The notes: generated from the letters alone by a model not told the origin. DNA of 64,000 nucleotides from an uncultured virus (IMG/VR IMGVR_UViG_3300008117_000004) (IMGVR_UViG_3300008117_000004:62001-126000), one strand, 5' to 3'; shown: positions 7,083 through 50,732, counted from the stretch's first letter. Numbers and translations are program-made.

Positions 7083-7108
7083 AAACCCACTTTTAAAGTG
7101 GGTTTTTT
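7083..7108. terminator. Bidirectional intrinsic terminator
   Basis: AAACCCACTTT-T-AAAGTGGGTTT inverted repeat with T-run between convergent genes. Confidence 0.7.
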
Positions 7109-7362
7109 ATTTCAATCTTTCCAAAATAATTACTATTTACACTTGTAACAGAATATCTTGATTTAACTGCCATTTTTGGTGAAAATTGACTATCTTTTAT
7201 TTCTCTATTAAGGTTATAAACTTTATTTATTTTCACCCTTCTAATATTCTGTTTTAAACTACCATCAATTATAGGATTAGATGTTTGTATTATATACGGA
7301 GCAAAAACATAACCAGGTTCTAAATTACTTTTCTTTCCTACTAATTCCATATATTTTTTCAA
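7093..7362 (-). CDS. Mini-protein resembling the C-terminal segment of a gp23-type major capsid protein
   Basis: PGYVFAPYI...FSPKMAVKSRY...NYFGKIEI versus gp23 AGIYYAPYV...FQPVMGFKTRY...YFRRVYV (recalled sequence). Confidence 0.65.
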   Translation of the reverse strand: MKKYMELVGKKSNLEPGYVFAPYIIQTSNPIIDGSLKQNIRRVKINKVYNLNREIKDSQFSPKMAVKSRYSVTSVNSNYFGKIEIKNPL

Positions 7363-7483
7363 TTTTTTTCTTTCTCATTTTATGACGAGTGATTTGAAAT
7401 GGTTGGAACCAATGACTATATGGATTTAACCTGGAACCAGGACCACCAAGTACAATTGTATTAGGATCGGGAGCTACAAACAT
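7325..7483 (-). CDS. 52-aa hypothetical protein (not in ORF track)
   Basis: Translated by hand: MFVAPDPNTIVLGGPGSRLNPYSHWFQPFQITRHKMRKKKIEKIYGISRKEK; fills the gap in a minus-strand operon. Confidence 0.5.
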   Translation of the reverse strand: MFVAPDPNTIVLGGPGSRLNPYSHWFQPFQITRHKMRKKKIEKIYGISRKEK

Positions 7484-7486
7484 AAT

Positions 7487-7804
7487 TTATTTCTTTTCTA
7501 TATAAAGGTATTTTCTACCTTCATCTTTATATGAATTTAAGTTACTTAAAGTTGTGTCTAGCTTATCAAATGTATTATCTAAATCTTTTTTAACGAGCTC
7601 TAAAGAAGCTATAGAATCATCTATTTGATCATTTCCTTTATCTGATAGATTTTTATAGTTATTTAATTCAATTATTAATGACTCTAAATATTTATTTTTT
7701 TCATTTAAAACATCTAAAAAGTCTTCAACTTCATTGATAATCTCATCTACTCTTTCGTTAGATAGTTCAACTTGTTCATTTTCAAAAAATCTCTTAATTC
7801 TCAT
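7487..7804 (-). CDS. Coiled-coil hypothetical protein with MRIKRFFENE N-terminus
   Basis: ORF with heptad-like pattern. Confidence 0.6.
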   Translation of the reverse strand: MRIKRFFENEQVELSNERVDEIINEVEDFLDVLNEKNKYLESLIIELNNYKNLSDKGNDQIDDSIASLELVKKDLDNTFDKLDTTLSNLNSYKDEGRKYLYIEKK

Positions 7805-7822
7805 ATTTTCAATAATTAAATT

Positions 7823-7836
7823 TTAATATATATTAA
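7823..7836. promoter_or_regulatory. Palindromic TTAATATATATTAA; putative bidirectional late-type promoter
   Basis: TAATATATA motif on both strands between divergent genes; motif recurs before many genes. Confidence 0.5.
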
Positions 7837-7838
7837 AT

Positions 7839-8735
7839 ATGTCAATTCAAAGAAATACTAAAAAGAAAAATACTAAATCATTTATTGAAGATTGTATCAC
7901 AAAAAGAGGTGATGAGTATGATTATTCATTAGTATCTTATGTTAATAACAAAGTTAAAGTTAAAATAATATGTAAATTTCATGGTATTTTTGAACAAACA
8001 CCTAATAATCATTTAAGAGGTCAAGATTGTCCGGAATGCTCAGATAAACATTTTAATAAAAAGAATAATAAAGATATAATTAATGACTTTATCTTATTAA
8101 ATGGTGATAAGTATGATTATTCAAAAGTGGATTATAAAGGTAGTAAGATAAAGGTTAAAATAATATGTAGAAAACATGGTGAATTTGAACAAACACCTAA
8201 TAATCATCTAAAAGGACAAGATTGTCCAAAATGTAAAAAAATAACAACTGAAACTTTTATAGAAAGGTCAAATAATATACATTTGAAAAAATATGACTAT
8301 AAATTAGTTGAGTATATCAACATGAATAAGAAAGTTGATATAATATGTTTGAAACATGGAAAATTCAAACAAATGCCACATTCACATTTAAGTGGAGTTG
8401 GTTGTCCAAAATGTCAAGAATCTAAAGGAGAAAGAGAGATTAGAAGAATATTAGAATTTAATAATATAGAATATATAAGTCAACACTCATTTAAAGAATG
8501 TTTTTATAAAAAAGAATTAAGATTCGATTTTTATTTACCTAAATTAAATATTTGTATAGAATACGATGGTGAACAACACTTCAAACCTATTGATTTTTAT
8601 GGTGGTCAAGAAAGTTTTAAAATACAAAAGAGAAGAGATTTGATAAAATCAAATTATTGTAATTCTAATAATATCAAACTAATAAGAATATCTTATAAAG
8701 ATGATATAAAAAATAAAATAGAAGATAATGTCTAA
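7839..8735 (+). CDS. Homing endonuclease-like protein: three Zn-ribbon repeats (CxxHGxFxQxxxxHLxGxxCPxC) plus C-terminal PD-(D/E)XK/Vsr-like nuclease
   Basis: Repeats visible; FDFYLP..CIEYDGEQH nuclease motif. Confidence 0.85.
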   Translation: MSIQRNTKKKNTKSFIEDCITKRGDEYDYSLVSYVNNKVKVKIICKFHGIFEQTPNNHLRGQDCPECSDKHFNKKNNKDIINDFILLNGDKYDYSKVDYKGSKIKVKIICRKHGEFEQTPNNHLKGQDCPKCKKITTETFIERSNNIHLKKYDYKLVEYINMNKKVDIICLKHGKFKQMPHSHLSGVGCPKCQESKGEREIRRILEFNNIEYISQHSFKECFYKKELRFDFYLPKLNICIEYDGEQHFKPIDFYGGQESFKIQKRRDLIKSNYCNSNNIKLIRISYKDDIKNKIEDNV

Positions 8736-9426: not shown

Positions 9427-9447
9427 ATAGTAGTTCAATTAGATTAC

Positions 9448-11538: not shown

Positions 11539-11556
11539 AAACTATATATAAAATTT

Positions 11557-13095: not shown

Positions 13096-13097
13096 AA

Positions 13098-16793: not shown

Positions 16794-17768
16794 TTAAATC
16801 TCAATGGATTTAATTTCGTTTACTAACGCATTTCTGTCAGTTTTTAGTAATTCAATTACATCAAAAACTTTATCAGAAAAACCAGCCAAACAGTAAACAC
16901 CATTTTCAGGTAGTTGTAAAGTACCATACCCAGCAAGATCCCAAGAGAATACTGAAGGATTAGCCCCAAATCTTTTCTTATATTGGTTAAACTCAGCACT
17001 TGGTGATGTATAACCAATCCAACCTTGCATATCACTTAAAATAACGATGTTATCATAAGCCTTATTAGCATTTTGGAAGATAGACTTAAAGTTAGTACCA
17101 CCACCAGAGTATCTAAAAGAGCTTCTTATTGTCATTACAGAATCCAATGGATTGTAAGTCTTATAATTAGCACTTGTAGAGAAAGTCATAACGTCACAGT
17201 TATTTGCTTTCGCAATAATTGCTCCGAATAAACTCGCAATTTCTGATGGTCTACCACTCATAGATCCAGATACGTCCATTACAAGTAATGTTTCACCTTC
17301 AAACTTTGGTACATTTTGTACTGAAACTTCAAGAGCGTTGTTGATAGCAACTAACACTTGTCTTGTTTCCTTGTTTGAAGGAAGCTTAGAGATTTCTTCA
17401 TAAGCTGTAGAGAATCTGAATGGTAAAACTCTACTCTTTTTGATTAATTTTTCATCAACCAACATTTCACAAGCCGCAGTAACAGATTGTGGAGCTTGAG
17501 AGACAATGTTTCTCAAGTTTCTTAAAAGAGCAAAGTAACCCAATTTTCTTGTAGAGATTAACTCTGTCCAAGCATCAGCCTTTAATTGTGCCAAATCTTC
17601 TGAGTTCTCAGCTGATTGACCAGCTGCTGATAACTTAGCTTCCCAAGTATCAGTGTTTTTTAACTTATCATTGATTAATAAGTTAAGTGCTTCAGAGTTT
17701 TTCTCTGTTGGCACTGGGTGTACTAAGTTAACAACGTCAACTAATTTATACATTTTTCTTTTTTTCAT
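16794..17768 (-). CDS. rsr: Ro60/TROVE protein, C-terminal fragment (rest of HEAT ring plus vWA domain)
   Basis: KLVDVVNLVHP, TWEAKLS, ALLRNLRNI, SRVLPFRF, MIDAS DVSGSM, GGGTN, LSDMQ. Confidence 0.9.
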   Translation of the reverse strand: MKKRKMYKLVDVVNLVHPVPTEKNSEALNLLINDKLKNTDTWEAKLSAAGQSAENSEDLAQLKADAWTELISTRKLGYFALLRNLRNIVSQAPQSVTAACEMLVDEKLIKKSRVLPFRFSTAYEEISKLPSNKETRQVLVAINNALEVSVQNVPKFEGETLLVMDVSGSMSGRPSEIASLFGAIIAKANNCDVMTFSTSANYKTYNPLDSVMTIRSSFRYSGGGTNFKSIFQNANKAYDNIVILSDMQGWIGYTSPSAEFNQYKKRFGANPSVFSWDLAGYGTLQLPENGVYCLAGFSDKVFDVIELLKTDRNALVNEIKSIEI

Positions 17769-18420
17769 AAATTATACTTTTAAATTTTTCTTCAAATTTT
17801 TCCTCTATACCTTTTATACTATGGTGACATTTTTCACATAATGTAATTCCATTATCTATATCCCAAAGAAAATTACACATGATGTAATCTTCGTATTTTA
17901 AAAGATTGTAATCCTCTACAATCTTTGAGAACTTTATAATATGATGTGAATTTAATTTACCACCACTATTACAAATTTGACATTTATATAAGTCACGATC
18001 ATATATAGATTTTCTCCATTCCTTATATAGAGATGATTGTTGTAATCTATTTCTAAATGTGGATCTACCTCCTTTCCACATAGGGTGTTTAAATCCAGGT
18101 CTAAGTCCTATAAATTTACTTCTTATTTTATCTTTATGCTCATCTGTTAAATTTTTACCTAAGTGTGAATTTGATATATTTTTTTTTCTCTCTTCGGTAT
18201 GTGGCTTGGAATTTGAAAATGAAATTTTTTTCTTATGTTCATCTGTAAATTTTCTACCTTTACCAGCATCTGAGTAGTTTCTTGGTTTAATTTCATATTT
18301 TTTAAACCAGTGATATATAACACCTCGATTTAAGTTTAATTTTTTTTCAATTTTAGAGTAAGATAAATTTTCCACAAAATATAAATACTCCAAATCTTCT
18401 TTTGAAATAAAAAAACTCAT
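17746..18420 (-). CDS. NUMOD3-repeat HNH homing endonuclease inserted in the Ro60 gene
   Basis: HKKKIS / HKDKI NUMOD3-like repeats; RDLYKCQIC..HHI..NGITLCEKCH. Confidence 0.85.
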   Translation of the reverse strand: MSFFISKEDLEYLYFVENLSYSKIEKKLNLNRGVIYHWFKKYEIKPRNYSDAGKGRKFTDEHKKKISFSNSKPHTEERKKNISNSHLGKNLTDEHKDKIRSKFIGLRPGFKHPMWKGGRSTFRNRLQQSSLYKEWRKSIYDRDLYKCQICNSGGKLNSHHIIKFSKIVEDYNLLKYEDYIMCNFLWDIDNGITLCEKCHHSIKGIEEKFEEKFKSIIYEKKKNV

Positions 18421-18455
18421 AATATACTTTTTAAGTATATATTATTTTTCAAATA

Positions 18456-18926
18456 TCATTTTTTCCATTTAGACAACTGATAACCATCAAATCTATCAAA
18501 TGATTTTGCGAATCCCTTTTTAATAGAGTTAGGAATTTTAGTCCCACAATTTGTATTATAATAAGCTAATATCTCCATCATATCATCAGGTCTAACAACT
18601 ATTTTATCATAGAAATTCTTAGCAAAATCTTTTCCAGATAAATACTTTGCTAACTCACCTGCTAAAGCATGTGCAACAGATCTCATACCAAACTTATCTC
18701 TGGCATAAATAGCTGCTTTAGCGGCAAAAACAGGATCAACTTTGATTAAAAGTTTTTTCAACTCATTCAAAGATTGATCAGATGATCTATAAAATTGATC
18801 ACTAACAAATGATGTTAGTAAAAATGATACTAATGCTAATTCATCAGATTGTGAATAAGCTTGACCTCCTGCTAAGTTATTAGTTAAGGTCTTTTGTTTA
18901 GGTAATGTTGCGTTAAATCTAGCCAT
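18456..18926 (-). CDS. rsr: Ro60/TROVE protein, N-terminal fragment
   Basis: NLAGGQAY, LLTSFVSDQFY, AIYARDKFGMRS, RPDDMMEILAYY, FDGYQLSK. Confidence 0.9.
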   Translation of the reverse strand: MARFNATLPKQKTLTNNLAGGQAYSQSDELALVSFLLTSFVSDQFYRSSDQSLNELKKLLIKVDPVFAAKAAIYARDKFGMRSVAHALAGELAKYLSGKDFAKNFYDKIVVRPDDMMEILAYYNTNCGTKIPNSIKKGFAKSFDRFDGYQLSKWKK

Positions 18927-19775: not shown

Positions 19776-21137
19776 TCACGAGCCGCATGCCATGCATTCA
19801 CCAGGATCTGAATCTAAGCTACACGAGATTTCAGCCATTTGTTCTTCAACAGTTTTCTTAGCCGTATCTTGTTGTACAGTGAATTTAACTGCGTCTGCCG
19901 CTGATTTATTTCTTAAATAATAAATACCAGTTTTTAATGTGTATCTCTTATCTTTATAACATCTTGCTTTACCTTCTGAATCGTAAATAACTTGAATATT
20001 TTCTCCTTGTGGGATAATAACTTCACCATTTTCATTGGTCATTAAGTTTCTTCTACCCCATCCATAGAAGTGCATCGCTGTCAACTTAGCAAAGTTTGGA
20101 GAATCCATAAAAATATTCATTGATTGAGTTTGGTCAATAAACGCTCCTCTATCAGCAGCCATCTCGATAACATCTCTTTGTTTAATCTCATAAACAGTTT
20201 TAAAGATTTCTTTCAAGTTAGTTGGTACTTCAGGTACATTTTGAACCGAACCATTCTCAGCAATAATTTTCTTTCTTAAATTTTCATTCCATAATCCTAA
20301 CTTAACTAATTCTTTAACTAAATATTTATTTACCATAATGAAAGTTCCTGAAAGAACACTTCTTGTGTACATATTTGAAGTTTGAGCTTCACAAGATGCT
20401 TCATTACCTAAGATAGAAGCTGTTGATGCTGTTGGCATGATACAAGTTGTTAAAGAGTTTCTAACACCATACTTCTTAACTTCTTCTCTTAATTTATCCC
20501 AATCCCATCTTTTACTAGGTTTAGTTCCCCATAAATCAAATTGGAATTTACCTTGTGAAATAGGTGAACCTTCATAAGTTGCGTAAGTGCCTTGTACTTT
20601 AGCTAAATCACAAGAAGCTTTAATTGAAGCGTAATAGATAGTTTCAAAAATATCTTTATTTAATTGTTTAGCCTCTTCAGATTCATATGGTAATCCTAAT
20701 TGAAAGAAAACATCTGCTAATCCTTGAACACCTAAACCAACTGGTCTATGACATAAGTTAGAAAATTTAGCTGATGGTGATGGATAAAAGTTAACATCAA
20801 TAACATTATTTAAGTTAACAATCGCATCATAAGCAATATCATAAAGTTTATTAAAATTATAAGTTTTATTCTTATTGATAAACTTAGGAAGTGCTAAAGA
20901 AGCTAAGTTACAAACTGCTGTTTCATTTACTTCTTCTTGACCCCAGAATTCACCTAACCCTAATTTCTCTAATAACTCTTTATTTTCTAAAATAGCTTTT
21001 TGCGTTTTAGTAACGCCTGTCGCTTCAACTATTTCAGCACAGTTATGTACTAATATATTATTAGCATAAAAGTTGTGATTTTTATTCACAGTAATGTCAT
21101 AAACTGGTCTATTTTTTACTTTTTCGATTTTGATCAT
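19776..21137 (-). CDS. nrdA: Ribonucleotide reductase class Ia alpha, C-terminal fragment preceded by 32-aa split-intein C-part (21042-21137)
   Basis: MIKIEK..VYDITVNKNHNFYANNILVHN|CAEI; VCNLASL, GLGVQG, MPTASTA, LKTGIYYLR, CMACGS. Confidence 0.95.
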   Translation of the reverse strand: MIKIEKVKNRPVYDITVNKNHNFYANNILVHNCAEIVEATGVTKTQKAILENKELLEKLGLGEFWGQEEVNETAVCNLASLALPKFINKNKTYNFNKLYDIAYDAIVNLNNVIDVNFYPSPSAKFSNLCHRPVGLGVQGLADVFFQLGLPYESEEAKQLNKDIFETIYYASIKASCDLAKVQGTYATYEGSPISQGKFQFDLWGTKPSKRWDWDKLREEVKKYGVRNSLTTCIMPTASTASILGNEASCEAQTSNMYTRSVLSGTFIMVNKYLVKELVKLGLWNENLRKKIIAENGSVQNVPEVPTNLKEIFKTVYEIKQRDVIEMAADRGAFIDQTQSMNIFMDSPNFAKLTAMHFYGWGRRNLMTNENGEVIIPQGENIQVIYDSEGKARCYKDKRYTLKTGIYYLRNKSAADAVKFTVQQDTAKKTVEEQMAEISCSLDSDPGECMACGS

Positions 21138-21154
21138 AATATTTTTTTTATTTT

Positions 21155-22054
21155 TTATGAAAATTGATTTTTATTTTTCTTAAATGTCTTTAGATATTCT
21201 CTAATTTCATTTTCTTTATTCTTAAATTTATTTTCCCAATCATCCTTATAGATTATATAATAACCTTTTGTTGTATGATATGGATACATTTCCTCTTTTG
21301 AATTTGTACTTGCGGTCTTGGAAACCGACCTATTTGATGAGTTAATATAATTAGATACATCAAAACAATAATCAAATTCTCTAATTATATTGAAGTCTTT
21401 ATCAAAAAGTAAAGTTTTTTTAGCTCTACTATTACCAGATCCACTTCTTTGTTTGGATAGCTTTTCTCTTGTTGATATTGACGCGGTTCTACCCATATTC
21501 CAATGTTCTCCTCTCAACTTTGCTTTATGTGATGGATATTCTTCTAAAGGAAGACCATACATATTATTATTCGATCCTAAAGCATTTCTTCTATGCTTTT
21601 CTCTTATCTCCTCTTTTCTTGGATTATTAGTAAAGTTATCACCACCATCTCCTCCTTTTGATATATTAACTAGAGGTCCTGACTTATCATATCTATTACC
21701 AATGATTAGTATCATATCTTTTTCCTTAAAAAAGGCATCTGATATACTCATACCATCAATATATTTCAATATAATTGGTTCTAATTTATCTGATAATATA
21801 CTCTTTATTATATTCTTTTTGTAATTATTATTTGTTATATCCTTATCGTTTTTCGCGTATTGTAAATGTCGAACTTTTCGATCATGTATAGTTTTACCAC
21901 TAGAAGCACCAACATAAAAAGGTTCATGATTAAATTCATATTCACCATATTTATAGTCTCCTGATTTTCTAGGATCCAGATAAACATAGATAAAGGATGT
22001 ATTATCTATGTTATCTGTTATAAAATCCTCATAATTAAACAAGTTCTTTTTCAT
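21155..22054 (-). CDS. GIY-YIG-like/NUMOD3 homing endonuclease between the nrdA fragments
   Basis: FIYVYLDPRK...PFYVG...LVNISKGGDG; NNMYG; TREKLS. Confidence 0.8.
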   Translation of the reverse strand: MKKNLFNYEDFITDNIDNTSFIYVYLDPRKSGDYKYGEYEFNHEPFYVGASSGKTIHDRKVRHLQYAKNDKDITNNNYKKNIIKSILSDKLEPIILKYIDGMSISDAFFKEKDMILIIGNRYDKSGPLVNISKGGDGGDNFTNNPRKEEIREKHRRNALGSNNNMYGLPLEEYPSHKAKLRGEHWNMGRTASISTREKLSKQRSGSGNSRAKKTLLFDKDFNIIREFDYCFDVSNYINSSNRSVSKTASTNSKEEMYPYHTTKGYYIIYKDDWENKFKNKENEIREYLKTFKKNKNQFS

Positions 22055-23657
22055 TTAATAATAAAATATCATTTTCTTCTAAATCACCAGCTCTAACATA
22101 TCCTCTATTTTGAGTCCAAACTTGATGATCCTCTGTACAGATTATGTAATTCCCACTTTCATCTGTTACTTTGATAGTTTCCGCATTATGATTGGTTATA
22201 CCAGAGTTTTCAACCAAACACCACTCATCAATTCCTGTTTCTAAGTCTCTAGAAAGAACTTCTATTTTCTTACCATTCTTAAACATAAGATCTATTGTGA
22301 CCATATCAAATTCTTTCTCTACACCTTCAACTCTACACTTAACTAAAGTATCTCCATCTAAACATAGATTAGATGAGTGTATCATTCCAATATTTGATTG
22401 ATTTGATTTCTCATTGATTGAATCTTTGTATAATAAGTATGGTGTACCAGTTTCAATTTGAGATTCTAATATTTTATTCCAAACTTCTCTTGCTTTAACA
22501 ACTCTTTTAGCTTTTCCAGCCGCTTCATAAGAAGTATAAAGTTTGTTAAATTCTTCACCATAAGTTTCATTCAATCCAGTACATTCGTGAGGACACATTA
22601 ATGACCAATCAGCATCTAACTCAACTCTTTCCATAAACAAGTCGTTCATCCACATTGCTAAGAAAAGGTCACGAGCTCTAATTTCATCTTTACCTTGGTT
22701 CTTTCTTAAATCTAAGAAGTCCATAATATCAGCGTGCCATGGTTCCATATAAATAGCAATTGATCCTTTACGTTTACCACCACCTTGGTCTACCGCTCTC
22801 GCTGTCTCATTATAGATTTTTAAGAAAGGAATAATACCATTTGAAGTACCGTTTGTACCAGCAATATAAGTTCCTTTAGCTCTTACTTTGTTAAAAGAGA
22901 TACCAATACCACCCGCGTTTTTAGAGATTTGAGCAGCTTCTTTTAATGTGTTAAAAATACCATCAATAGAATCTGATTCAGTATCTAATAAGAAACAAGA
23001 AGATAATTGTGGTCTACCTGTTCCAGAGTTGAATAATGTTGGTGTTGCGTGAGTATAATAACCTTCTGATAATTCGTTATAAGTTTTAATTACTTTTTCT
23101 AAGTTTTCACCCCAAATTTGAAGTGCTGTTCTCATATACATATACTGAGGTCTTTCAGCAACTTTACCATTAATTTTTAATAAGTAAGATTTCTCTAAAG
23201 TTTTGTAACCAAAGTAATCAAAGTTATGATCTCTTGAGTGTACAATAGCTGAATCTAAATCATCAGCGTGTTTTTTAACAATGTTGTAAAAATCCAAAGA
23301 AACAATTGGAGAATGTTTCTCTGTCATTGGATCTACATAGTTATATAAATCTTTAACTGTTTCTGAAAAGCTCTTTTTAGTTTCTTTATGTAAAGAAGTA
23401 ATAGCGATTCTTGCTGCTAAAACTGAGTAATCTGGGTGTTTTGTTGTAAGAGAAGCCGCAGTTTCCATTGCCAATTGATCTAACACAGAAGTTTTAATAT
23501 CTGGTGTAATACCTTCAATAACTTTTTGTGCGATCTCAAACGGTGCTATCCACTTTTGATCTAATCCATAAGTTTGTTGTGTTATACGATCAACAATCTT
23601 ATTGAAATTAACGGTTTCTTTCTTACCATTTCTTTTTGTGACTTTTATCATGCTCAT
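22035..23657 (-). CDS. nrdA: Ribonucleotide reductase alpha, N-terminal fragment (ATP cone) ending in 109-aa split-intein N-part (22035-22364)
   Basis: VTKRNG ATP cone, ATPTLFN, LSSCFL, DQGGGKRKG, SSNL|CLDGDT...CTEDH. Confidence 0.95.
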   Translation of the reverse strand: MSMIKVTKRNGKKETVNFNKIVDRITQQTYGLDQKWIAPFEIAQKVIEGITPDIKTSVLDQLAMETAASLTTKHPDYSVLAARIAITSLHKETKKSFSETVKDLYNYVDPMTEKHSPIVSLDFYNIVKKHADDLDSAIVHSRDHNFDYFGYKTLEKSYLLKINGKVAERPQYMYMRTALQIWGENLEKVIKTYNELSEGYYTHATPTLFNSGTGRPQLSSCFLLDTESDSIDGIFNTLKEAAQISKNAGGIGISFNKVRAKGTYIAGTNGTSNGIIPFLKIYNETARAVDQGGGKRKGSIAIYMEPWHADIMDFLDLRKNQGKDEIRARDLFLAMWMNDLFMERVELDADWSLMCPHECTGLNETYGEEFNKLYTSYEAAGKAKRVVKAREVWNKILESQIETGTPYLLYKDSINEKSNQSNIGMIHSSNLCLDGDTLVKCRVEGVEKEFDMVTIDLMFKNGKKIEVLSRDLETGIDEWCLVENSGITNHNAETIKVTDESGNYIICTEDHQVWTQNRGYVRAGDLEENDILLLNEKELV

Positions 23658-27093: not shown

Positions 27094-27116
27094 ACTTAAT
27101 ATTTTATTTTTATATA

Positions 27117-30530: not shown

Positions 30531-30559
30531 AAAAAACTCACCAAATTGGTGAGTTTTTT
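30531..30559. terminator. Bidirectional intrinsic terminator
   Basis: AAAAAACTCACCA-AAT-TGGTGAGTTTTTT between convergent genes. Confidence 0.75.
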
Positions 30560-32226: not shown

Positions 32227-32266
32227 ACTTTTTTTTAATATATATGATAAAGTTTTATTAAAGTTT

Positions 32267-35152: not shown

Positions 35153-36679
35153 TTAAATATCATTTTCCAATTCTTTGATCATATCAAGTACTTTTTTAAG
35201 CTCTTCCTTTTTGCTCATCATGATATTTTTATTATATTTTCTATCGGCATATATATCTTCCAACATCTTGAGTGTGGGTGATAACCTTTTCTCGAAAACT
35301 ACACCATTTACACATAACACATGATTATTTAAATCAATTTCTCTACCATTTTCACACATAGTTTTATCTCTACTTGATTGAACACCAACGAAGTTTTCAG
35401 GGGCTATGTAAAACTGACGTTGTGTTGTGGGATAAAGTGAGCTGAAATCATAAGTAACACACCATCTGTTCATTCCGACTACTGGATCTTTAACCCATCC
35501 ACCTGCAATAGTTGATTCACCATCTCCCTTTTCGTCTTTGAAAAGAACTATATTATCCATTTCTCTAAATCGATTTCTTAAAACTCCTTCTGTGATTGCT
35601 AAAGAAGCTAAAGCATTATTCATTTGAGAAACAACATCAACAATTCTAATTCTCGATAATGAAGAGATCGCATAAACAATAGAGATATAGTTTCTTGCTT
35701 CGTGAATTTTTTGTACTAAGACACTATCGACAGCGTTATAATACATAAAAGTTTCAAAATCATCCTCATAAAGTTTTTGTAATGATCCTGTATATTTAAT
35801 TTTATCAACACCAACTAATTTCTGAGAAACAAAGTCTAATGATGATGACTCTTTTACCTTGATTGAAGTATCACAAATTTCATATAATTGCATGTAATCA
35901 AAGATCATTCTATGTGCTGGTACCTCAAAATCAGTTCCCCACATTTTATTCAATCTTTTTAAAGGCGATGATTCATTTGGATTGATTCTATATTCTTTAC
36001 CATTCATCCATTTGGATATTTTTCTAGAACGGTTTACTAAATACAACCAGTCATAGTTCAAGAAGTTCCATCCAGTTAAAAGTGGCATTTTAGGAACCAT
36101 TTTATGAAAGAAAGCATATAACATATCAAACTCATCATCATACTTAACATACTTAAACTTATAATCTGAATTAAATTTCTTAAAGTATTTATTTGTGTTA
36201 GTTCTTATACGTTCTTGCATATCTTCAGGCATATCCTTTAAACCTAATAAGATAATTTTATCGTCATAAACAATTGATATTGAAAGAACTTGAGTAGCTG
36301 CTCCTTCTTGTATAACATTACCTTGCTGATCTTTAATATCAGCAGCTTCAGGAAAACCATCAATAATTTCAGTTTCAATATCTATAAAGTAAATCTTTGG
36401 TAGGTTAAACTCAAACAACTCATCTTGTTCTTCTTTTGGAAGTGCGTCTAAATACTCATAGATTGCGTATCTATCAGGTCTCTCAACTTGAACCAATTTT
36501 ACTGATTTACCATCCCAAGATTTATAAGTTGGATGTTTTTGAGGATCATTCTCCTCACAAGTAACGTATTTAACTGGATTATCCCAGTCATAATATTTAA
36601 GTTTTATATCACCGGTTTTATCTACATAACTACAAACTAATTTCTTCGTATTTGTCAAATATTGTGTTTCAATAAGCAT
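35153..36679 (-). CDS. Family B DNA polymerase, N-terminal subunit only (3'-5' exonuclease plus motif A)
   Basis: DIETE, GWNFLNYD, YNAVDS exonuclease motifs; GGWVKDP, YDFSSLYP; ends before KxxxNSxYG and YGDTDS. Confidence 0.9.
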   Translation of the reverse strand: MLIETQYLTNTKKLVCSYVDKTGDIKLKYYDWDNPVKYVTCEENDPQKHPTYKSWDGKSVKLVQVERPDRYAIYEYLDALPKEEQDELFEFNLPKIYFIDIETEIIDGFPEAADIKDQQGNVIQEGAATQVLSISIVYDDKIILLGLKDMPEDMQERIRTNTNKYFKKFNSDYKFKYVKYDDEFDMLYAFFHKMVPKMPLLTGWNFLNYDWLYLVNRSRKISKWMNGKEYRINPNESSPLKRLNKMWGTDFEVPAHRMIFDYMQLYEICDTSIKVKESSSLDFVSQKLVGVDKIKYTGSLQKLYEDDFETFMYYNAVDSVLVQKIHEARNYISIVYAISSLSRIRIVDVVSQMNNALASLAITEGVLRNRFREMDNIVLFKDEKGDGESTIAGGWVKDPVVGMNRWCVTYDFSSLYPTTQRQFYIAPENFVGVQSSRDKTMCENGREIDLNNHVLCVNGVVFEKRLSPTLKMLEDIYADRKYNKNIMMSKKEELKKVLDMIKELENDI

Positions 36680-38336: not shown

Positions 38337-38858
38337 TTACTTTTCATCTAATAATTTATTTATTTTTTCATCTCTATTTATAGTTTTAATAAAGTTTGAT
38401 ATCTCATATACATTACCATCCACTGATACAAAAGTTTGATTTAATCCAGGCAGTCGGTGTATTGAAAATAATTTAATTTTCTCTTTAGGGAAACCACCAT
38501 TATTGAAAGTAAGATTAGTAACGGTAAGTATCTTTTTTGTTTTTATATTCAATATTCTCTTAGATATTTCACTACTGAAAAAATCAATATCATCAACTAT
38601 AATATAATCTATTTTATTCTTAATTACCATTTCATCAATCATATCCATAATCATTAAATCTGATTGTAAATTGGATTTTATATTGGAAACTTTTAGGAAA
38701 AGATGTTTTAATTTTTCTACTTTGAATCGTGAATTAGTACCATCAATTTCTAAGAAAATTATATTACTGTTATATAAACATCCAACTATATCTCTTAGTA
38801 GAAAAGTTTTCCCTAAGGAATTACTTCCTATAATTAGGTTTATATCTTTATCAAACAT
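38337..38858 (-). CDS. Small, possibly degenerate P-loop NTPase (RecA-like)
   Basis: GSNSLGKT Walker A; YIIVDD Walker B; C-terminal RDEKINKLL. Confidence 0.55.
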   Translation of the reverse strand: MFDKDINLIIGSNSLGKTFLLRDIVGCLYNSNIIFLEIDGTNSRFKVEKLKHLFLKVSNIKSNLQSDLMIMDMIDEMVIKNKIDYIIVDDIDFFSSEISKRILNIKTKKILTVTNLTFNNGGFPKEKIKLFSIHRLPGLNQTFVSVDGNVYEISNFIKTINRDEKINKLLDEK

Positions 38859-43102: not shown

Positions 43103-43492
43103 TCATGAAATTAATTTGAAAAAATAAGAGAGAAAAACGTCAATTAAAATACAAAAAGCAATATAACCTAAAAAGTAAAAAATTAATTTTTTATTGAATT
43201 TATCACTCAAAGCAAATTTCTTAAACTTAATCTTATCAAATTTAAATTTATTTACGAGGTTATCTAATTTCTGGTCTCTCTCACAACTTTTACATAATTT
43301 GAAGTTATTTGTGTTTGAAATATCTTCTATTGTATTCCTTTGATGTCCAGTTTCGGATTTACAGTTATAGCATTTAACACCAGTAGATAAATCATATAAA
43401 ATTGATTTACCTTTTTTAATCATATAAAAGTTATATGAAAAAATAGCCAAGACTCCAAGTAATTGGAATAAGCTTATTGTAATTGTTATCAT
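43103..43492 (-). CDS. Membrane protein with central CxxC..CxxC
   Basis: Two hydrophobic segments; CYNC/CKSC; RDQKLDNL. Confidence 0.55.
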   Translation of the reverse strand: MITITISLFQLLGVLAIFSYNFYMIKKGKSILYDLSTGVKCYNCKSETGHQRNTIEDISNTNNFKLCKSCERDQKLDNLVNKFKFDKIKFKKFALSDKFNKKLIFYFLGYIAFCILIDVFLSYFFKLIS

Positions 43493-43728
43493 AAAATTTT
43501 ATTTAATTTATTATCTCTTATTAGGTCTTTATTTAAATCTAATATTTCTTTATAATTCCATTCTCTTGATATCCAAAGACCTCCTTGGTATTCAACTCTT
43601 TTTTGATAATAAACAGAACATCTGGCACTATCATAATCGATATAAAGACCATTTCCTGGTGTTGTAACAGAAGTTAATATACCCTTACCAGCAGGAGTAT
43701 TTACTTCATCCCAAATAGTTAAACTCAT
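43489..43728 (-). CDS. Small hypothetical protein with C-terminal IRDNKLNKIL
   Basis: ORF coupled to downstream gene. Confidence 0.55.
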   Translation of the reverse strand: MSLTIWDEVNTPAGKGILTSVTTPGNGLYIDYDSARCSVYYQKRVEYQGGLWISREWNYKEILDLNKDLIRDNKLNKIL

Positions 43729-45191: not shown

Positions 45192-45224
45192 TTTATTGAA
45201 GATATATTATTGTTTAATTATATA

Positions 45225-45256: not shown

Positions 45257-45267
45257 TTCTAAATAAC

Positions 45268-45825
45268 TTATTTTTCATCATCAAATAATGAATCAATTTT
45301 CTTATCTCTTATGTAAGCACCTTTCAATTTGTCTAATTCGGTTGTCCATCCATTGATATTATCTTTAATGAATTTAGATTGTAAATTTCTATTGGCATTG
45401 AAACTTGTAGGTGTTGTGATATTTGGATCAAGATTATATTTTATTTCAACATGAAAATCATTTACATCATCAGTTGATTTGTAGTGATATTCTTTAGCAA
45501 TTATAATGAATTTATAATCTAATTTTTCTATGACTTTTAAGAAGTTTGTTACTTGGTGACTTTTATATTGATAAAGATCAATTACAATTAAGTTAACTCG
45601 AAATAGATTTGACTTATCGTTTACTAACTCTTCAAACTCTTCAAAGTTGTTAAATAATATACAACTATGTAGTCCGTATATAAGACCACAACTTTTCTCT
45701 TTGTTAGGTGCGAAAAGTACATAATTATAATTATCAACTTCAAGGAAGTTAACAACTTCTAAGAGTACACTGGAAATATGATTAGGTGTCCCAGTAAAGA
45801 AATTATACTTTTTTAAAAAAATCAT
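45268..45825 (-). CDS. Hypothetical protein with C-terminal IRDKKIDSLF
   Basis: ORF; LIVID could be a Walker B remnant. Confidence 0.55.
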   Translation of the reverse strand: MIFLKKYNFFTGTPNHISSVLLEVVNFLEVDNYNYVLFAPNKEKSCGLIYGLHSCILFNNFEEFEELVNDKSNLFRVNLIVIDLYQYKSHQVTNFLKVIEKLDYKFIIIAKEYHYKSTDDVNDFHVEIKYNLDPNITTPTSFNANRNLQSKFIKDNINGWTTELDKLKGAYIRDKKIDSLFDDEK

Positions 45826-46207
45826 TTATATTTAAACATTCTTTATTAACATCAACAATAAAGTTGAACTTTTGTAGAAATCTTCTTCCTATTAACATAG
45901 GATATTGCATATTATCACGATTGTTTAGTGAAACATATAATTTATATGGAGTATTTCCTAAAATAACACTTGTGGGAATTGCATAACGTTCTTGTTCATG
46001 ACCAAATGAACTTTTAACATTTATTGTTTTGAATTTTTCATAGACGAAGTTTTTATCGCCTATTCTAAAATGTAATTTACCTTCTAATTCCTCTATCTCG
46101 TCACAATGTAAGACATTACTGTAAGCACCTGTGTCGATTTTAGCAGGTACATTAACCAATCCAAGATCCACAAAATGAAATAATTCTCTCCAACCAACTA
46201 TATTCAT
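45803..46207 (-). CDS. Retropepsin-like aspartic protease (RimK-associated family)
   Basis: VGWRE, AKIDTGAYS, VKSSFG, R..MQYPMLIGRRFL. Confidence 0.88.
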   Translation of the reverse strand: MNIVGWRELFHFVDLGLVNVPAKIDTGAYSNVLHCDEIEELEGKLHFRIGDKNFVYEKFKTINVKSSFGHEQERYAIPTSVILGNTPYKLYVSLNNRDNMQYPMLIGRRFLQKFNFIVDVNKECLNINDFFKKV

Positions 46208-46271
46208 AAATATTATACTTTATATTAAACAAAGATACTAAAATTTTCTATAAAAAGAAAAAAAATTATAT

Positions 46272-47030
46272 ATGAATTCATATAGTTTTAGCTGTATAAT
46301 TTTATACAGACACAATATACAGAGATGGAACAATCTAAAAAGAATACTGGAGTGGATAACTGGATTTTCTAATGTAGAATTAATAATAGTTGAACAAGAT
46401 ACACATTCTAAAATTGGTCATTTAAACTTTCCAGGAAAACATATCTTTACAAAATCAAAAATGCCATTCAACCGTTCTTGGGGATTTAATGTTGGTTTAA
46501 AACACGTTAATTCAAAAGTTACGGTTTTTACAGACTGTGATTTGATAATGAACCCTGAACTATTTATAAGTGGTTTGAAATCATTAGAACAGTTTGAGAT
46601 GGTTAGTCCTTATAATTCTGTTGTTGATTTAAACCCACAAGAAAGTGGATTTCAATTAGAAGAGATGTTAAAAATTGATAGACCAGGTAGGGGTGAAAAT
46701 GATATTCAAAAAATCAACATCTCCGGAGGTATAACTATGTTTAGAACGGATGCTATTAAAAAAATCGCAGGGTGGAACGAAGACTTTATTTCTTGGGGAG
46801 GTGAAGATGACTTTCAAACTGTTAAGGTGGAGAACTTTTTAACGTGGTATGAACAACCGGGAAGATGTTACCATCTTTATCACGATAAAGAAAAAATTGA
46901 CATGAAGTGGTATCAGAGAAATTTACAATTGTTATCGAAATTGAAGTCATTAACAAGAGAAGAATTGAGTAAACAAATCATGACTAGTTCTCCAAAAATT
47001 GGAATGAAAAATAAATATGATAATTTTTAA
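46272..47030 (+). CDS. GT-A glycosyltransferase (GT2/GT7 galactosyltransferase-like)
   Basis: VEQD, FNRSWGFNVG, DCD (DxD), GWNEDFISWGGEDD, HLYH. Confidence 0.88.
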   Translation: MNSYSFSCIILYRHNIQRWNNLKRILEWITGFSNVELIIVEQDTHSKIGHLNFPGKHIFTKSKMPFNRSWGFNVGLKHVNSKVTVFTDCDLIMNPELFISGLKSLEQFEMVSPYNSVVDLNPQESGFQLEEMLKIDRPGRGENDIQKINISGGITMFRTDAIKKIAGWNEDFISWGGEDDFQTVKVENFLTWYEQPGRCYHLYHDKEKIDMKWYQRNLQLLSKLKSLTREELSKQIMTSSPKIGMKNKYDNF

Positions 47031-47944
47031 ATATTATTTAATAAAATATCTTCAATTTTATTAAAATCTTTATATGAAATTCTTAAAAGATGAATATTTT
47101 TAGATTTACAATATTCATCTTTTATTTTATCACATTCTATTGTGTATTTTAACTTATCCATTCCACCTTGAAATCCCAGTGGTTTGAAGTGTTGTATACC
47201 ATCATATTCGATTAAAATATTTTTATCTGATAACCAAAAGTCAAATGATAATTTTTTATTTTTTATACAATCATCAAATTTTTTCTGTGTTTCGTATGTT
47301 ATATTATTTTTTATTAGAAATCTCTCTATTCTATTCTCACCTCTAGATTGATTACATTTTGGACAACCCTTACCATCTAAGTGATTTGATGGCATTTGTT
47401 TAAATGATCCATGTTTTGGGCAAATTATTTCCACTGGTGTTTTAGCATTTATATAATTTAACTTCGAATAATCATATAGAACACCATGTGTATTATTCGC
47501 TTTGCTAGGGAAAAATTGTGAGTATTTTTTAATGTTAGTATTTTTAGTTTTTTGTATTTTACATCTAGGACATCCTTGTCCTCTAAGATGTTTATTTGGG
47601 GTTTGGTCAAAATATCCATGTATAGGACAAGATATATGAACTTTCGTACCATCATTAATATATTCTACTTGATCATAATTGTAGAAGTTATTATGAACTT
47701 TATTTGATTGATCAATGAATTTGGACAAACTTTTACTGAATGATTTTTTATTTTTATCAATTGCACATTTTTTACAACCCTTACCAATTAAATGATTATA
47801 TGGTAATTGTTCAAAATATCCATGTATAGGACATCCAATTAGTATCTTCGTTTTCGCGTTTATGTAATTTACTCTATCATAATTATAAAAATTGTTATGC
47901 ACATCATTTGCCTTTTTTATAAAGTTGTAAAACTTATCATCCAT
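47027..47944 (-). CDS. Zn-ribbon-repeat plus PD-(D/E)XK homing endonuclease-like protein
   Basis: CPIHG x2, CPKHG; FDFWL..IEYDGIQH. Confidence 0.85.
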   Translation of the reverse strand: MDDKFYNFIKKANDVHNNFYNYDRVNYINAKTKILIGCPIHGYFEQLPYNHLIGKGCKKCAIDKNKKSFSKSLSKFIDQSNKVHNNFYNYDQVEYINDGTKVHISCPIHGYFDQTPNKHLRGQGCPRCKIQKTKNTNIKKYSQFFPSKANNTHGVLYDYSKLNYINAKTPVEIICPKHGSFKQMPSNHLDGKGCPKCNQSRGENRIERFLIKNNITYETQKKFDDCIKNKKLSFDFWLSDKNILIEYDGIQHFKPLGFQGGMDKLKYTIECDKIKDEYCKSKNIHLLRISYKDFNKIEDILLNNI

Positions 47945-47977
47945 AAAGTTATATATTAAAAAAATAAGACAATAAAT

Positions 47978-48694
47978 ATGACAACTTTTGATAAAATAAA
48001 AATAATTTCAAACTTTAAAGAGGAGAAAAATACACTACCTCAAATACAAGTCAATTATATTGATTTTGTGTATGAAACTGAAGAAGAAAGATTGAAGAAA
48101 AAAATGGAAAGAAGAAACATCGCAATTGATGTTGTTCTTGATGAGGCTAATGAAGAAGATTTAGTGGATATAGTTCCTGATCAGACATTAAGAGATGAGT
48201 TATCTTTTGGTGGTGTTATAGCCCCACAAGTTTATAGTATGAGTATTCAATCAAAAAGATATATATCAGAAGATAGTCTTTATGATGAAATTATCGACTT
48301 TATTGACAAATCAAACTTGAATTTGAATTCACCTGTTAATTTAGATTTAACTTTATCAAACTCACCAGATGGATCTGATAATAGAAAGTTTATTTCTAAA
48401 GTAATGATGGCTTCCAACTTAATTGCTGTTGAAGGTAGAATAGGTCCTGCTAAAACTGTTATATTAGGAAAGAATGTTTTTTATAAAATGGTGGATTGTT
48501 TAGATATGTTATCTAATACAGGTCTTCAACACTTTGTTGATTATTCAATTGATCCTGATAAAGTGATTGTTTTTAGAACAAACAATACAGATCAAAGTGG
48601 AATTATTTGTATTCTTGATGAGGGAAATGGTAGATATTTCTTAAAAGAAACACCAAATTGGGAGAGACAATATTGTAGTTTTAAAGTTATATAA
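47978..48694 (+). CDS. Protein whose C-terminal half resembles the A-domain segment of a gp23-type major capsid protein
   Basis: RKFISKVMMASNLIAVEGRIGPAKTVILG...HFVDYSIDPDKVIVFRTNNTDQSGI versus gp23 ..IARQTGRGEGNFIIAS...VYIDQYAKQDYFTVGYKG..DAGI (recalled). Confidence 0.55.
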   Translation: MTTFDKIKIISNFKEEKNTLPQIQVNYIDFVYETEEERLKKKMERRNIAIDVVLDEANEEDLVDIVPDQTLRDELSFGGVIAPQVYSMSIQSKRYISEDSLYDEIIDFIDKSNLNLNSPVNLDLTLSNSPDGSDNRKFISKVMMASNLIAVEGRIGPAKTVILGKNVFYKMVDCLDMLSNTGLQHFVDYSIDPDKVIVFRTNNTDQSGIICILDEGNGRYFLKETPNWERQYCSFKVI

Positions 48695-48698
48695 AATA

Positions 48699-48727
48699 AA
48701 AAAGACATCTATAAGATGTCTTTTTTT
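48699..48727. terminator. Bidirectional intrinsic terminator
   Basis: AAAAAGACATCT-ATA-AGATGTCTTTTT. Confidence 0.7.
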
Positions 48728-49259
48728 ATGCTGGTACTCTTAATTTATCATATTTAAGTAGTAATTTATACATTCTATCCCATTCGTCTTTTGGGTTTTG
48801 TATCTTTTTTTCATACCACTTATTGTTGTTCATGTATTCAACAATCATTCCAACTTTTAAATCATCCATAGTTTTTGGAACCCAATATCTTTTTGCTTCT
48901 ACGAACGAAAATGATACACCATTGTGTAAATATGATTTATTTTCCGAATCGGTATTATACATAAGTAAACCCAGTGGTTGTTCAGAACCATCAAAGAAAA
49001 CTTTTTTAGCATTTGAATCTCCTTGGTATTTTACAATTGCGCAATCTTGATTAAAATGATCTAATAAGAAAATAGCATCTCTTCTTAAAGAATCATTATC
49101 TGGTCCCCAAGCAATAACAGAATCTTCAAAGTTACCTTTATAATAACCTTGTATAGGTAAGATTTGATATTCTTTTGAATAAAGAACAGAAATCATTTCG
49201 TTTAATCTATCAGCTGATAGAATTATATATGAAGATTGTACACTTTCTAATCCGTTCAT
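48726..49259 (-). CDS. SAM lyase (T3 SAMase)-like protein with short C-terminal extension
   Basis: YIILSADR / GYYKG..EDSV / FNQDCAIV versus T3 YVLVSAFR / GCYRE..EKTV / WEQDCVLV (recalled). Confidence 0.55.
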   Translation of the reverse strand: MNGLESVQSSYIILSADRLNEMISVLYSKEYQILPIQGYYKGNFEDSVIAWGPDNDSLRRDAIFLLDHFNQDCAIVKYQGDSNAKKVFFDGSEQPLGLLMYNTDSENKSYLHNGVSFSFVEAKRYWVPKTMDDLKVGMIVEYMNNNKWYEKKIQNPKDEWDRMYKLLLKYDKLRVPA

Positions 49260-49294
49260 ATTTTATATATTAATATCTTATAGTTATATATTAA

Positions 49295-50548
49295 TTATAA
49301 AATATTAAATTCTTCAAATAATTTGGTTTTGAAAATTGTTTCGATAGGTTCTTTATATTTTTTAGGAATAATTATACTATCATGTACAGTAACTAATTTT
49401 ACTTCAGGGTAAAAAATCATTATATCTCTTATGATTTTATTAAAAATTAAATTAGATTCTGCTCTTTGTAATTCATATGATAGAATTTTATAATCACCTT
49501 TTTCTTTTTTATAAAGTTTTATAAAATAATGTATTGATGGAAATAATTCAGAAAATACTTTATCTGCTTTACTATTGGAAGCATTCTTACCAAAAAGAAC
49601 TCGGTAAGTCATTTCTTTAACCATTCCTTTATCAGTAGTTTTTAAATGATCCATTACATATTGATAATATTTACCATTTATGGTTAAATATTTGAATAAT
49701 TCAAACTCATCACTTCTAACCCATTTTGAGTTACTATCGGAAATTATTTTTGTTAAAAAAAGAGGTTGGCTGTTGTTGATATCAATTTCACAAGTTTCTT
49801 CACCATCTATCAGTAAACAGTTTTTTCTAATGAATGATTTTAAAATTGTGAAATTTGTGTGCATTCTACCATAATTATCAAAATGATAGAATATGTGTTT
49901 ATCATTTATACACTCTACTGAATATTTATTTCTATTATAAATATCACTATCATTATCTTTTAAATTATCTAAATAAAATATTGATCTATCAAATTGAATA
50001 TCAATATAAAAAAGATCATCTACTAACTTCGTTTTGATATCATCATCTATAAGTTTGTTTTTAATACCATCTTCTTCAATTTGACAAACATTATTTCGAT
50101 ACTTTTTAAGTAAAATATTATCCGAATTTCTATATCGATTTATTTTACCTTTTAGAACTTTATCATTTATTTTATAAACTCTAGCATTTCTACCAGCTTG
50201 GTAATTGGAGATCATTTCTAGTATATTATTATCTACTAAATATCCAATATAATAATTATAAAGATATCCATACTTATCTTTTAGGATAGTTGACATTAAG
50301 TTAAATTTATTCTCTTTTTTAAAATAATATTTTAAAATAAGATTGTGTATTATATCAACTATATAAGATGATTTTAATTTTACACCTTTGTACTCAAAAT
50401 TTTTATTTTCAGATAATTCTTCTAAGATAGTTGGTAAGAATTGTAAACTTGATTTTTTAGTTTCAAGTTTTTTTCTGATAGTTGAGTGAAATTTTTTATC
50501 CTCAATTTCTAAGACTTCTAAATTCATAGATATTATATCATGTATCAT
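49295..50548 (-). CDS. Minimal PolA/T7-RNAP-superfamily polymerase-like protein
   Basis: DNYGRMH, IDINNSQP (motif A), KEMTYRVLFG (motif B), LQRAES, VHDS (motif C); no exonuclease domain. Confidence 0.65.
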   Translation of the reverse strand: MIHDIISMNLEVLEIEDKKFHSTIRKKLETKKSSLQFLPTILEELSENKNFEYKGVKLKSSYIVDIIHNLILKYYFKKENKFNLMSTILKDKYGYLYNYYIGYLVDNNILEMISNYQAGRNARVYKINDKVLKGKINRYRNSDNILLKKYRNNVCQIEEDGIKNKLIDDDIKTKLVDDLFYIDIQFDRSIFYLDNLKDNDSDIYNRNKYSVECINDKHIFYHFDNYGRMHTNFTILKSFIRKNCLLIDGEETCEIDINNSQPLFLTKIISDSNSKWVRSDEFELFKYLTINGKYYQYVMDHLKTTDKGMVKEMTYRVLFGKNASNSKADKVFSELFPSIHYFIKLYKKEKGDYKILSYELQRAESNLIFNKIIRDIMIFYPEVKLVTVHDSIIIPKKYKEPIETIFKTKLFEEFNIL

Positions 50549-50558
50549 GATTTTAGTT

Positions 50559-50732
50559 CTACTTTTTAAAAATTTTCTTTATCTTATTTCTTCTAATTTC
50601 GGATCTTAAAATACCTTCTAAAAAATTATCATCAATACCATAATGATGACTTAAATCTGTCACCATTTCAACACTCCATTCAGCTTTTAATGCTTTAGTG
50701 CTCACCTCAACAGATTTCATTTTTATACTCAT
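50559..50732 (-). CDS. 57-aa mini-protein resembling the KSRxLKAxxSxExxQDL segment of gp23 major capsid protein (not in ORF track)
   Basis: MSIKMKSVEVSTKALKAEWSVEMVTDLSHHYGIDDNFLEGILRSEIRRNKIKKIFKK; TAATG-coupled to upstream gene. Confidence 0.7.
   Translation of the reverse strand: MSIKMKSVEVSTKALKAEWSVEMVTDLSHHYGIDDNFLEGILRSEIRRNKIKKIFKK

Follow-up and report, generated by a model that had tools for sequence, protein, structure and literature searches.

In phage T4, the address that marks internal proteins for the head is N-terminal and is removed by the head protease, and phage satellites use capsid-protein homologues to redirect the capsid size of their helper phage. No T4 internal protein is known to be an excerpt of a capsid protein. 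Here we describe three accessory genes, all conserved and all descended from a capsid protein of the T4 type, two of them excerpts and one a predicted whole fold, in a 64,000-nucleotide stretch of DNA from an uncultured virus (IMG/VR IMGVR_UViG_3300008117_000004; the whole stretch is called the window below). The open reading frames (ORFs) concerned, ORF3, ORF2 and ORF1, had been described in a first-pass annotation as scattered mini-genes tiling the C-terminal half of a gp23-type major capsid protein, and all three are present where it placed them, with the peptides it quoted. ORF3 and ORF1 share an amphipathic motif of nine residues, R-[DNEK]-x-K-[IL]-x-[KQN]-[IL]-[LF], whose arginine is invariant and which has no known counterpart in gp23 or gp24.

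50559..50732, minus strand: ORF3, 57 residues, a T4-type capsid excerpt (strand, short helix, first half of the spine helix) followed directly by the shared motif
47978..48694, plus strand: ORF2, 238 residues, a capsid-protein paralogue predicted to have a complete minimal HK97 fold
7093..7350 (to 7362 from the earlier start), minus strand: ORF1, an excerpt covering the capsid protein's last strands, 85 residues from the ATG at 7350 or 89 from the TTG at 7362

The window comprises bases 62001-126000 of a linear virus record (G000, 135,802 bp; CheckV completeness 56%) and has a guanine-cytosine content of about 27%. It encodes a ribonucleotide reductase, thymidylate synthase, DnaB-like helicase, family-B polymerase, glycosyltransferases and collagen-repeat proteins, and the record outside it adds a sigma-70-type factor, SmpB, an NAD-dependent ligase and thioredoxin, gene types that mark a very large bacteriophage. 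Near-identical DNA is present in lake and freshwater metagenomes of several studies, and a search for RNA runs matching window 47000-52100 returned none; the source is a freshwater huge phage. With the 440-residue gene adjoining ORF3 as a search anchor we collected 68 related loci from virus contigs, the longest of 596 kb, and most of the window is syntenic, in inverted order, with positions 74-135 kb of a 385-kb relative (G002). Capsid residue numbers below follow the 560-residue capsid protein of a relative. No intact capsid gene was found in the 135.8-kb, 56%-complete record, and no portal or protease match in the whole of it, which fits a head module lying in the missing part of the genome. 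Capsid type was compared with two hidden Markov models (HMMs), one built from six capsid proteins of the clade and one from two classical T4-like capsid proteins.

ORF3 by itself matches the Pfam family Gp23 (PF07068) with 36.3 bits (cut-off 24.4; E 5.8e-9), its residues 1-47 covering profile positions 136-183 of 376; it also matches PHROG 138, major head protein, at E 7.6e-9. Aligned with hhalign to the capsid alignment, its family profile places ORF3 1-57 on capsid 307-370 (probability 96.8%, E 2.2e-10), and tblastn matches it to the capsid genes of 121 phage records, with some 47% of residues identical across 44-45 positions, the main groups being Acinetobacter (63), Aeromonas (46) and cyanophages. 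The ATG overlaps the stop codon of the upstream gene (TAATG) and is preceded, seven bases ahead, by AAGGAG, a predicted ribosome-binding site that we rate as strong. The window copy scores 29.7 bits with the T4-like HMM against 0.7 with the clade HMM; across the 35-member family the T4-like model reaches at least 10 bits and outscores the clade model in 24, the reverse holds in 3, and both stay below 10 bits in 8. By these scores ORF3 appears to resemble classical T4-type capsid proteins more than those of its own clade.

The ORF3 family is large, with well over 100 clusters at 50% identity. Its profile, run against 1.84 billion representative proteins, gave 1372 matches at E ≤0.001; among the best 150 of these, 122 are at most 100 residues long, 22 have 101-300 and 6 exceed 300, and 93 of the 122 carry a motif-like tail by a loose pattern. 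In other lineages, three proteins of 116-125 residues (P0066, P0074 and P0111) join an ORF3-type piece to an N-arm-like capsid piece, with a similar short F-K-F-x-R/G-like motif at each end. An AlphaFold2 (AF2) model of ORF3, with a predicted local distance difference test score (pLDDT) of 79, has residues 1-20 extended, helices at 21-31 and 35-55, and the long helix passing without a break from the capsid-like part through the motif. Because the first 20 modelled residues have no partner strand, ORF3 is unlikely to fold on its own. A predicted complex of ORF3 with ORF1 scored 0.00 against a mark of 0.32, and we count it neither way.

ORF2 alone has no Pfam match and no relevant PHROG match. 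The profile of its 29-member family, by contrast with the single sequence, aligns ORF2 131-213 with capsid 403-509 (hhalign probability 96.6%, E 6.4e-10).

48368..48616, plus strand: ORF2 residues 131-213, the part whose sequence is still recognisably capsid (22.3 bits with the clade HMM against -4.6 with the T4-like HMM)

The clade HMM reaches at least 10 bits in 23 of 30 ORF2-type proteins and the T4-like HMM never exceeds 4.4, which suggests that ORF2 resembles the clade's own capsid protein. Modelled by AF2 on 29 family sequences (pLDDT 82; predicted template modelling score, pTM, 0.73), ORF2 has leading strands, a spine helix (35-53), long strands, two A-domain helices and closing strands. 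Foldseek, a check proposed for each ORF at the outset, returned HK97-fold capsid proteins as all the leading matches of this model, T4 gp23 being the closest: VIA-align superposes model residues 2-238 on gp23 106-519 (7vrt_aa) with Z 16.6 and a root-mean-square deviation of 3.2 Å over 192 residues. The encapsulin EncA (9b9q_B; Z 14.1, 4.3 Å, 181 residues), gp24 (1yue; Z 13.4) and the HK97 prohead (Z about 12) score lower. On this model ORF2 is a stripped-down yet complete capsid-fold paralogue and no fragment. The earlier view of all three genes as capsid fragments thus survives for ORF3 (about 64 capsid residues) and ORF1 (about 67) and fails for ORF2, the only one of the three with a complete HK97 fold in prediction.

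ORF1 is probably 85 residues long, since its orthologues begin at the position of the ATG at 7350. By itself it reaches the Pfam Gp23 profile at positions 306-354 below the cut-off (E 0.0037, 17.2 bits). Its five-member family profile aligns with the last 67 residues of the capsid protein, 490-556 (hhalign probability 96.6%, E 6.3e-10), and the counterpart in a 483-kb relative scores 33.3 bits, above the Gp23 cut-off. A pattern-based search for further relatives returned mostly the C-termini of ordinary capsid genes, with a true counterpart in 1 of 80 loci (L130). Homology of the three genes to a gp23-type capsid protein was thus borne out, through the single sequence for ORF3 and through family profiles for ORF1 and ORF2.

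The same design recurs in related huge phages. In each of four near-complete relatives (95-98%, 385-483 kb) a single full-length capsid gene, its open frame 562-591 residues long, occurs together with three to six short matches to different parts of the Gp23 profile (positions 26-51, 134-185, 155-194, 184-305, 197-260 and 300-376). An intact capsid gene and mini-genes therefore occur together in all four, and they do so too in a 735-kb uncultured phage (LR756501). In G002 a simple pattern for the motif picks out eight small ORFs, four of which match the capsid family, and in one row of three adjacent genes there is one piece each resembling the capsid protein (E 0.01), head-maturation proteases (phrog_207, E 4.9e-4) and the T4 portal protein (PF07230, E 0.0034). 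About 8 kb past the end of the window, at G000:C1:134020-134724, lies a 234-residue motif-ending protein that scores 36.3 bits with the clade capsid HMM over capsid positions 449-507; it is absent at the matching place in G002.

Other arrangements of capsid pieces were seen in the 735-kb phage. A 196-residue ORF (L012, 1390-1980) joins conserved capsid stretches from the N-terminal region, the spine helix and the last strand and lacks what lies between. Two adjacent mini-genes of 101 and 78 residues (L008, 2692-3237) both end in an acidic D-P-Y-G-E-E-x-W and not in the basic motif; the second is a counterpart of ORF1, and the first is capsid-like by eye only.

Are these genes kept? Iterated profile searches of the related loci, to which the two features below give the context, show that they are held at fixed places.

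50732..52054, minus strand: gene of 440 residues upstream of ORF3, overlapping its start; the anchor for the related loci
47027..47944, minus strand: homing-endonuclease-like gene (DUF723/DUF4379) between a glycosyltransferase gene and ORF2

An ORF3-type gene is present in 49 of the 60 loci that hold both flanking genes, always directly after the 440-residue gene, and an ORF2-type gene in 40 of the 53 loci with enough sequence. Both genes are dispensable, since some lineages lack them (11/60 and 13/53, respectively). The 53 loci testable for both comprise 37 with both genes, 8 with ORF3 only, 3 with ORF2 only and 5 with neither, and gain or loss of the one gene does not depend on the other. 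By the Nei-Gojobori method, independent pairs give an omega of 0.15-0.47 for ORF3 in eight of nine computable pairs (1.94 in the ninth, with 15 changes; two more pairs were saturated) and of 0.18-0.41 for ORF2 in seven of eight (1.10 in the other, with 11 changes). The pooled ratios of non-synonymous to synonymous differences (pN/pS) are 0.38 and 0.33. These estimates indicate purifying selection on ORF3 and ORF2; ORF1 has a single pair, with an omega of 0.57. The proposal that the genes are maintained rather than decaying, which was to be judged on conservation and substitution ratios in relatives, is upheld for ORF3 and ORF2 on both counts.

On this evidence it is highly improbable that the genes are non-functional debris of homing endonucleases and recombination. 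The idea has some local appeal, as the window holds many endonuclease-like and split genes and one of the former sits beside ORF2. That neighbour, however, occurs in only 6 of 68 loci, most relatives passing directly from the glycosyltransferase gene to ORF2; the open frames have been kept at fixed positions over dozens of divergent relatives, with a pN/pS of 0.33-0.38, and the size of the ORF3 family also speaks against debris. Conservation largely refutes this account.

Hardly credible, and largely refuted as well, is a single capsid gene in pieces, whose products or RNAs would be rejoined or would co-fold into one capsid-like protein. The detectable segments do follow one another, as was first noticed: their capsid positions are 307-370, 403-509 and 490-556, in that order, with a gap between the first two and about 20 residues common to the last two. 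The window also contains truly split genes, such as a ribonucleotide reductase with intein halves. Yet ORF2 already contains every fold element; ORF1, ORF2 and ORF3 have no intein family match at E up to 10; ORF3 is of the T4 type and ORF2 of the clade type; their presence is discordant in 11 of 53 loci; and relatives carry further, overlapping excerpts and, where complete, an intact capsid gene. The suggestion that three pieces of one protein co-fold is accordingly not supported.

Could ORF2 instead be a second shell protein, a vertex or auxiliary subunit, with ORF3 and ORF1 as unrelated small genes of the same family origin? Its predicted complete HK97 core, most like T4 gp23 and gp24, its conservation and the signs of purifying selection all suit such a role. 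We consider it improbable: ORF2 is absent from 13 of the 53 testable relatives, the clade's capsid proteins are more than twice as long as its 238 residues, and it does not lie beside the capsid gene (about 50 kb away in G002) but follows a glycosyltransferase gene in relatives.

What ties ORF3 and ORF1 to each other, and to many genes unlike either, is the motif, which we scored with a position weight matrix (PWM).

50568..50594, minus strand: the motif in ORF3, R47-F55 (PWM 24.7)
7195..7263, minus strand: 23 residues of ORF1 that alignments show as an insertion against the capsid protein, holding the motif at 7216-7242 (PWM 13.6)
48113..48139, plus strand: a motif-like stretch in the predicted spine helix of ORF2, R46-L54 (PWM 0.5; 18.0 in the G002 orthologue)
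7325..7483, minus strand: ORF0, 52 residues, motif-bearing, overlapping the start of ORF1 and not capsid-like (PWM 20.1)
38337..38858, minus strand: a motif-ending protein of 173 residues with a marginal thymidine-kinase/AAA match
43489..43728, minus strand: a motif-ending protein of 79 residues without a family
45268..45825, minus strand: a motif-ending protein of 185 residues without a family

Carriers number 10 of the 153 genes of the record and 37 of the 486 of G002, about 7% of proteins, and the motif lies 0-7 residues from their C-terminus save for two outliers at 10 and 14. Our initial loose pattern did no better than shuffled sequence (12 matches against 3-13) and was replaced. The stricter pattern matches 6 of 153 C-terminal 30-mers in the record and 19 of 486 in G002, compared with 0 and 2 among reversed tails, 0 and 0 among N-terminal 30-mers, and 0.5 and 0.9 expected from its internal density. 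None of 139,933 internal control windows reaches the PWM score of ORF3, and 1 in 10,000 reach that of ORF1. R47 is the sole invariant column of the 35-member ORF3 family, and R46 is one of only three in the ORF2 family. The first-pass annotation had credited each of the three genes with an added basic helix; for ORF3 and ORF1 this proved to be the shared motif, whereas the stretch in ORF2 is its spine helix and scores close to zero.

Codon use at the conserved motif positions equals genome-wide use (largest chi-square 7.5, 2 degrees of freedom, 8 tests), and I and L, as well as L and F, interchange there; the constraint thus acts on the peptide and not on the DNA, and the same codon comparison led us to reject a DNA signal as the origin of the motif. 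We also considered whether it copies the end of the capsid protein's own spine helix. hhalign does align the two, and that end is the capsid protein's best PWM site, but its score is merely within the top 1% of windows, and a copy is not supported.

The placing of the motif within the ORF1 family varies. It lies inside the 23-residue insertion in the window and in three genomes and at the C-terminus in a fourth; the counterparts in G005 and the 735-kb phage lack the insertion and have a C-terminal tail. Strong internal copies occur at residue 243 of a 555-residue helicase (window 30559-32226; PWM 20.4, and 21.9 in the G002 helicase), where the motif may be the trace of an old fusion, and within the ORF2 orthologue of G002, in its spine helix. 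Motif-bearing genes are scattered rather than adjoining ORF2, and relatives without ORF2 at the syntenic place still carry the motif. ORF0, which by eye had looked like a fourth capsid excerpt, was rejected as one because it has no similarity to either capsid HMM. Its positional counterparts in two relatives keep the motif on unrelated N-terminal parts, and it is absent in G002. Small proteins near ORF1 begin with or contain a similar K/R-K/R-F-N-E sequence (window 6714-7076 and 7487-7804; G002 126319-126636 and 127745-128083; L107 1780-2679), which may be a second recurrent short motif.

A short, terminal peptide common to many unrelated small proteins invites comparison with head cargo. The motif would then be a capsid-targeting address, all its carriers would be loaded into the prohead and perhaps injected, and the excerpt part would have no role in assembly. 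A report on a giant Salmonella phage (PMC7411985) puts about 50 different proteins in its head, a number of the same order as the 37 motif-bearing genes of G002, and the 234-residue capsid-like protein just beyond the window is also tagged. We regard this as somewhat unlikely: the T4 address is N-terminal while the motif here is mostly C-terminal, no large gene of the G002 head-gene region ends in the motif (as judged by eye), and loading as cargo would leave unexplained both the strong internal copies, such as that in the helicase, and why the tagged pieces should be excerpts of head proteins in particular.

We tentatively favour, at somewhat less than an even chance, the reading that the tagged excerpts are interface mimics that modulate or poison the assembly of T4-type heads. 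One partner would recognise the motif, which would serve all its carriers as a handle or address, and each excerpt would mimic a surface by which head proteins contact each other. The mini-proteins might then attach to T4-type head protein before it assembles, whether it comes from the phage itself or from a T4-like phage infecting the same cell, and couple it to the partner of the handle or block it from that partner, with ORF2 perhaps acting as an auxiliary capsid-fold subunit in the same process. In the intact fold the excerpted parts are packed against the remainder of the capsid protein, and ORF3 at least is unlikely to fold alone; docking on unassembled head protein would be the most economical reading. 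The source proteins of the excerpts are all head-assembly proteins, namely the capsid protein and, on weak matches, the protease and the portal protein, which we count in favour of interference with assembly, together with the peptide-level constraint on the motif, the purifying selection on ORF3 and ORF2 and the T4-type look of ORF3.

Several observations weigh against it. Only 3 of 46 motif-bearing proteins have a Pfam family above its cut-off, two of them capsid excerpts and one a marginal thymidine kinase, the remainder being small and without a known family, so that the clientele of the motif says nothing about heads. The capsid, protease and portal matches of the G002 row all fall below curated cut-offs, and DNA-polymerase and terminase excerpts that we had picked out in G002 from remembered signature motifs were dropped for want of Pfam or PHROG support. 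ORF3 and ORF2 are each missing from a fraction of testable loci. The T4-like HMM rests on two sequences only, and the T4-like look of ORF3 could be an old state kept since an ancient duplication. The choice between an own and a foreign target rests on relatives, as the record holds no capsid gene. Finally, the capsid-derived genes are surrounded by RNA-repair and sugar genes and not by head genes; the early statement that they lie outside a head operon is confirmed by this setting.

Foreign targets are central to a bolder version of interface mimicry, in which huge phages would maintain a whole set of tiny genes for peptide mimicry. Each would display, on the common handle, a single conserved contact piece of a classical T4-type head protein (capsid, perhaps also portal and protease), and the set would sabotage head assembly in co-infecting smaller T4-like phages or blind host sensors of such proteins, while the phage's own diverged capsid would be immune. 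We think this unlikely. Immune evasion could also suffice by itself, the excerpts being decoys that imitate features of capsid, portal or protease read by bacterial sensors. They are indeed the most conserved and T4-typical segments, and the genes are accessory and variably present, as genes of counter-defence often are. Such decoys nevertheless strike us as quite unlikely. Known bacterial sensors mostly recognise folded proteins; a peptide-level case, Gol/Lit, reportedly involves the N-terminal part of gp23, outside the excerpts; scans of the window genes revealed no defence-related neighbour or family; and a decoy would not need a handle common to 7% of the proteome.

The surroundings of the capsid-derived genes are otherwise uninformative as to their role. 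Scans of the neighbouring genes gave no functional hint, and promoter-like sites do not exceed chance. The 440-residue gene has no match in Pfam or PHROG, and its likeness to RNA ligases is a language-model lead only. Terminator-like hairpins accompany two of the genes.

7083..7105, strand unassigned: terminator-like hairpin over the ORF1 stop codon, between convergent genes (one hairpin, counted once per strand as 2 sites; 0.1 expected)
48698..48726, strand unassigned: terminator-like hairpin directly after ORF2

Elsewhere the window contains several interrupted genes, all on the minus strand. The large subunit of ribonucleotide reductase is divided into two genes (540 and 453 residues, 19776-23657) whose halves match N- and C-terminal intein-splicing families, with a GIY-YIG endonuclease gene between them (21155-22054); in G002 it is a single uninterrupted gene. 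A TROVE/Ro60-like gene, undivided in G002, consists here of parts with 156 and 324 residues (16794-18926) on either side of a NUMOD3-containing ORF (17746-18420). A DnaB-like helicase appears to be split (24750-27845) into ORFs at 27117-27845 and 24750-25919, both of which match one G002 gene at 83-85% identity; they flank a 393-residue ORF that belongs to no family. The family-B DNA polymerase ORF (35153-36679) has only 508 residues, comprising the exonuclease domain and the start of the polymerase domain, and its G002 counterpart has 567; the remaining part of the polymerase was not located. Four paralogous DUF723/DUF4379 zinc-ribbon genes (7839-8735, 32126-33244, 34174-35142 and 47027-47944) are probably homing endonucleases, and the best G002 match of all four is one gene, at 140044-141108. 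Very large collagen-repeat proteins (1193 and more than 1000 residues), encoded at 58822-64000 and upstream in G000, are probably fibres.

Neither capsid-excerpt genes nor this motif is described in the literature that we searched, which included a survey of jumbo-phage genomics (PMC7824862). If the reading proposed here is true, short excerpts of structural proteins can become working phage genes, many of them on one address peptide, and a new class of gene is to be sought among the 'dark' small ORFs of large viruses. It would also offer an entry point to a motif carried by some 7% of these phages' proteins, and natural peptide inhibitors or modulators of T4-type capsid assembly would be possible. 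ORF2 is among the smallest complete T4-type HK97 cores that we have seen, and would be useful for defining the minimal needs of the fold.

How do these genes compare with known systems? All three are homologous to T4 gp23 and gp24 (PF07068; PDB 7vrt, 5vf3, 6uzc, 1yue), and ORF2 appears to share their fold over its full length, whereas ORF3 and ORF1 are excerpts of 57-89 residues that would be unable to form it; unlike the vertex protein gp24, ORF2 is neither universal (40/53) nor beside the capsid gene. Encapsulins (PDB 9b9q, 7s2t) likewise combine an HK97-fold shell protein of about 240-280 residues with a short C-terminal peptide on unrelated proteins. Here, however, the motif-bearing genes are not next to ORF2, and the motif is unlike encapsulin loading peptides in sequence. 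T4 internal proteins similarly bear a short conserved address, the capsid targeting sequence, on very diverse small proteins (PMC3012670); the motif described here is C-terminal or internal, and 0 of 153 and 0 of 486 N-terminal 30-mers match it. Genes fractured by inteins and homing endonucleases have a true parallel in the ribonucleotide reductase of the window, but no intein halves accompany the capsid-derived genes, which are spread over both strands at distances of 2-43 kb. Although ORF2 belongs to the phage itself, and excerpts and motif form no part of the satellite system, the capsid homologues of satellites are extra HK97-fold paralogues that alter assembly of the main capsid, and as such offer a possible model for ORF2.

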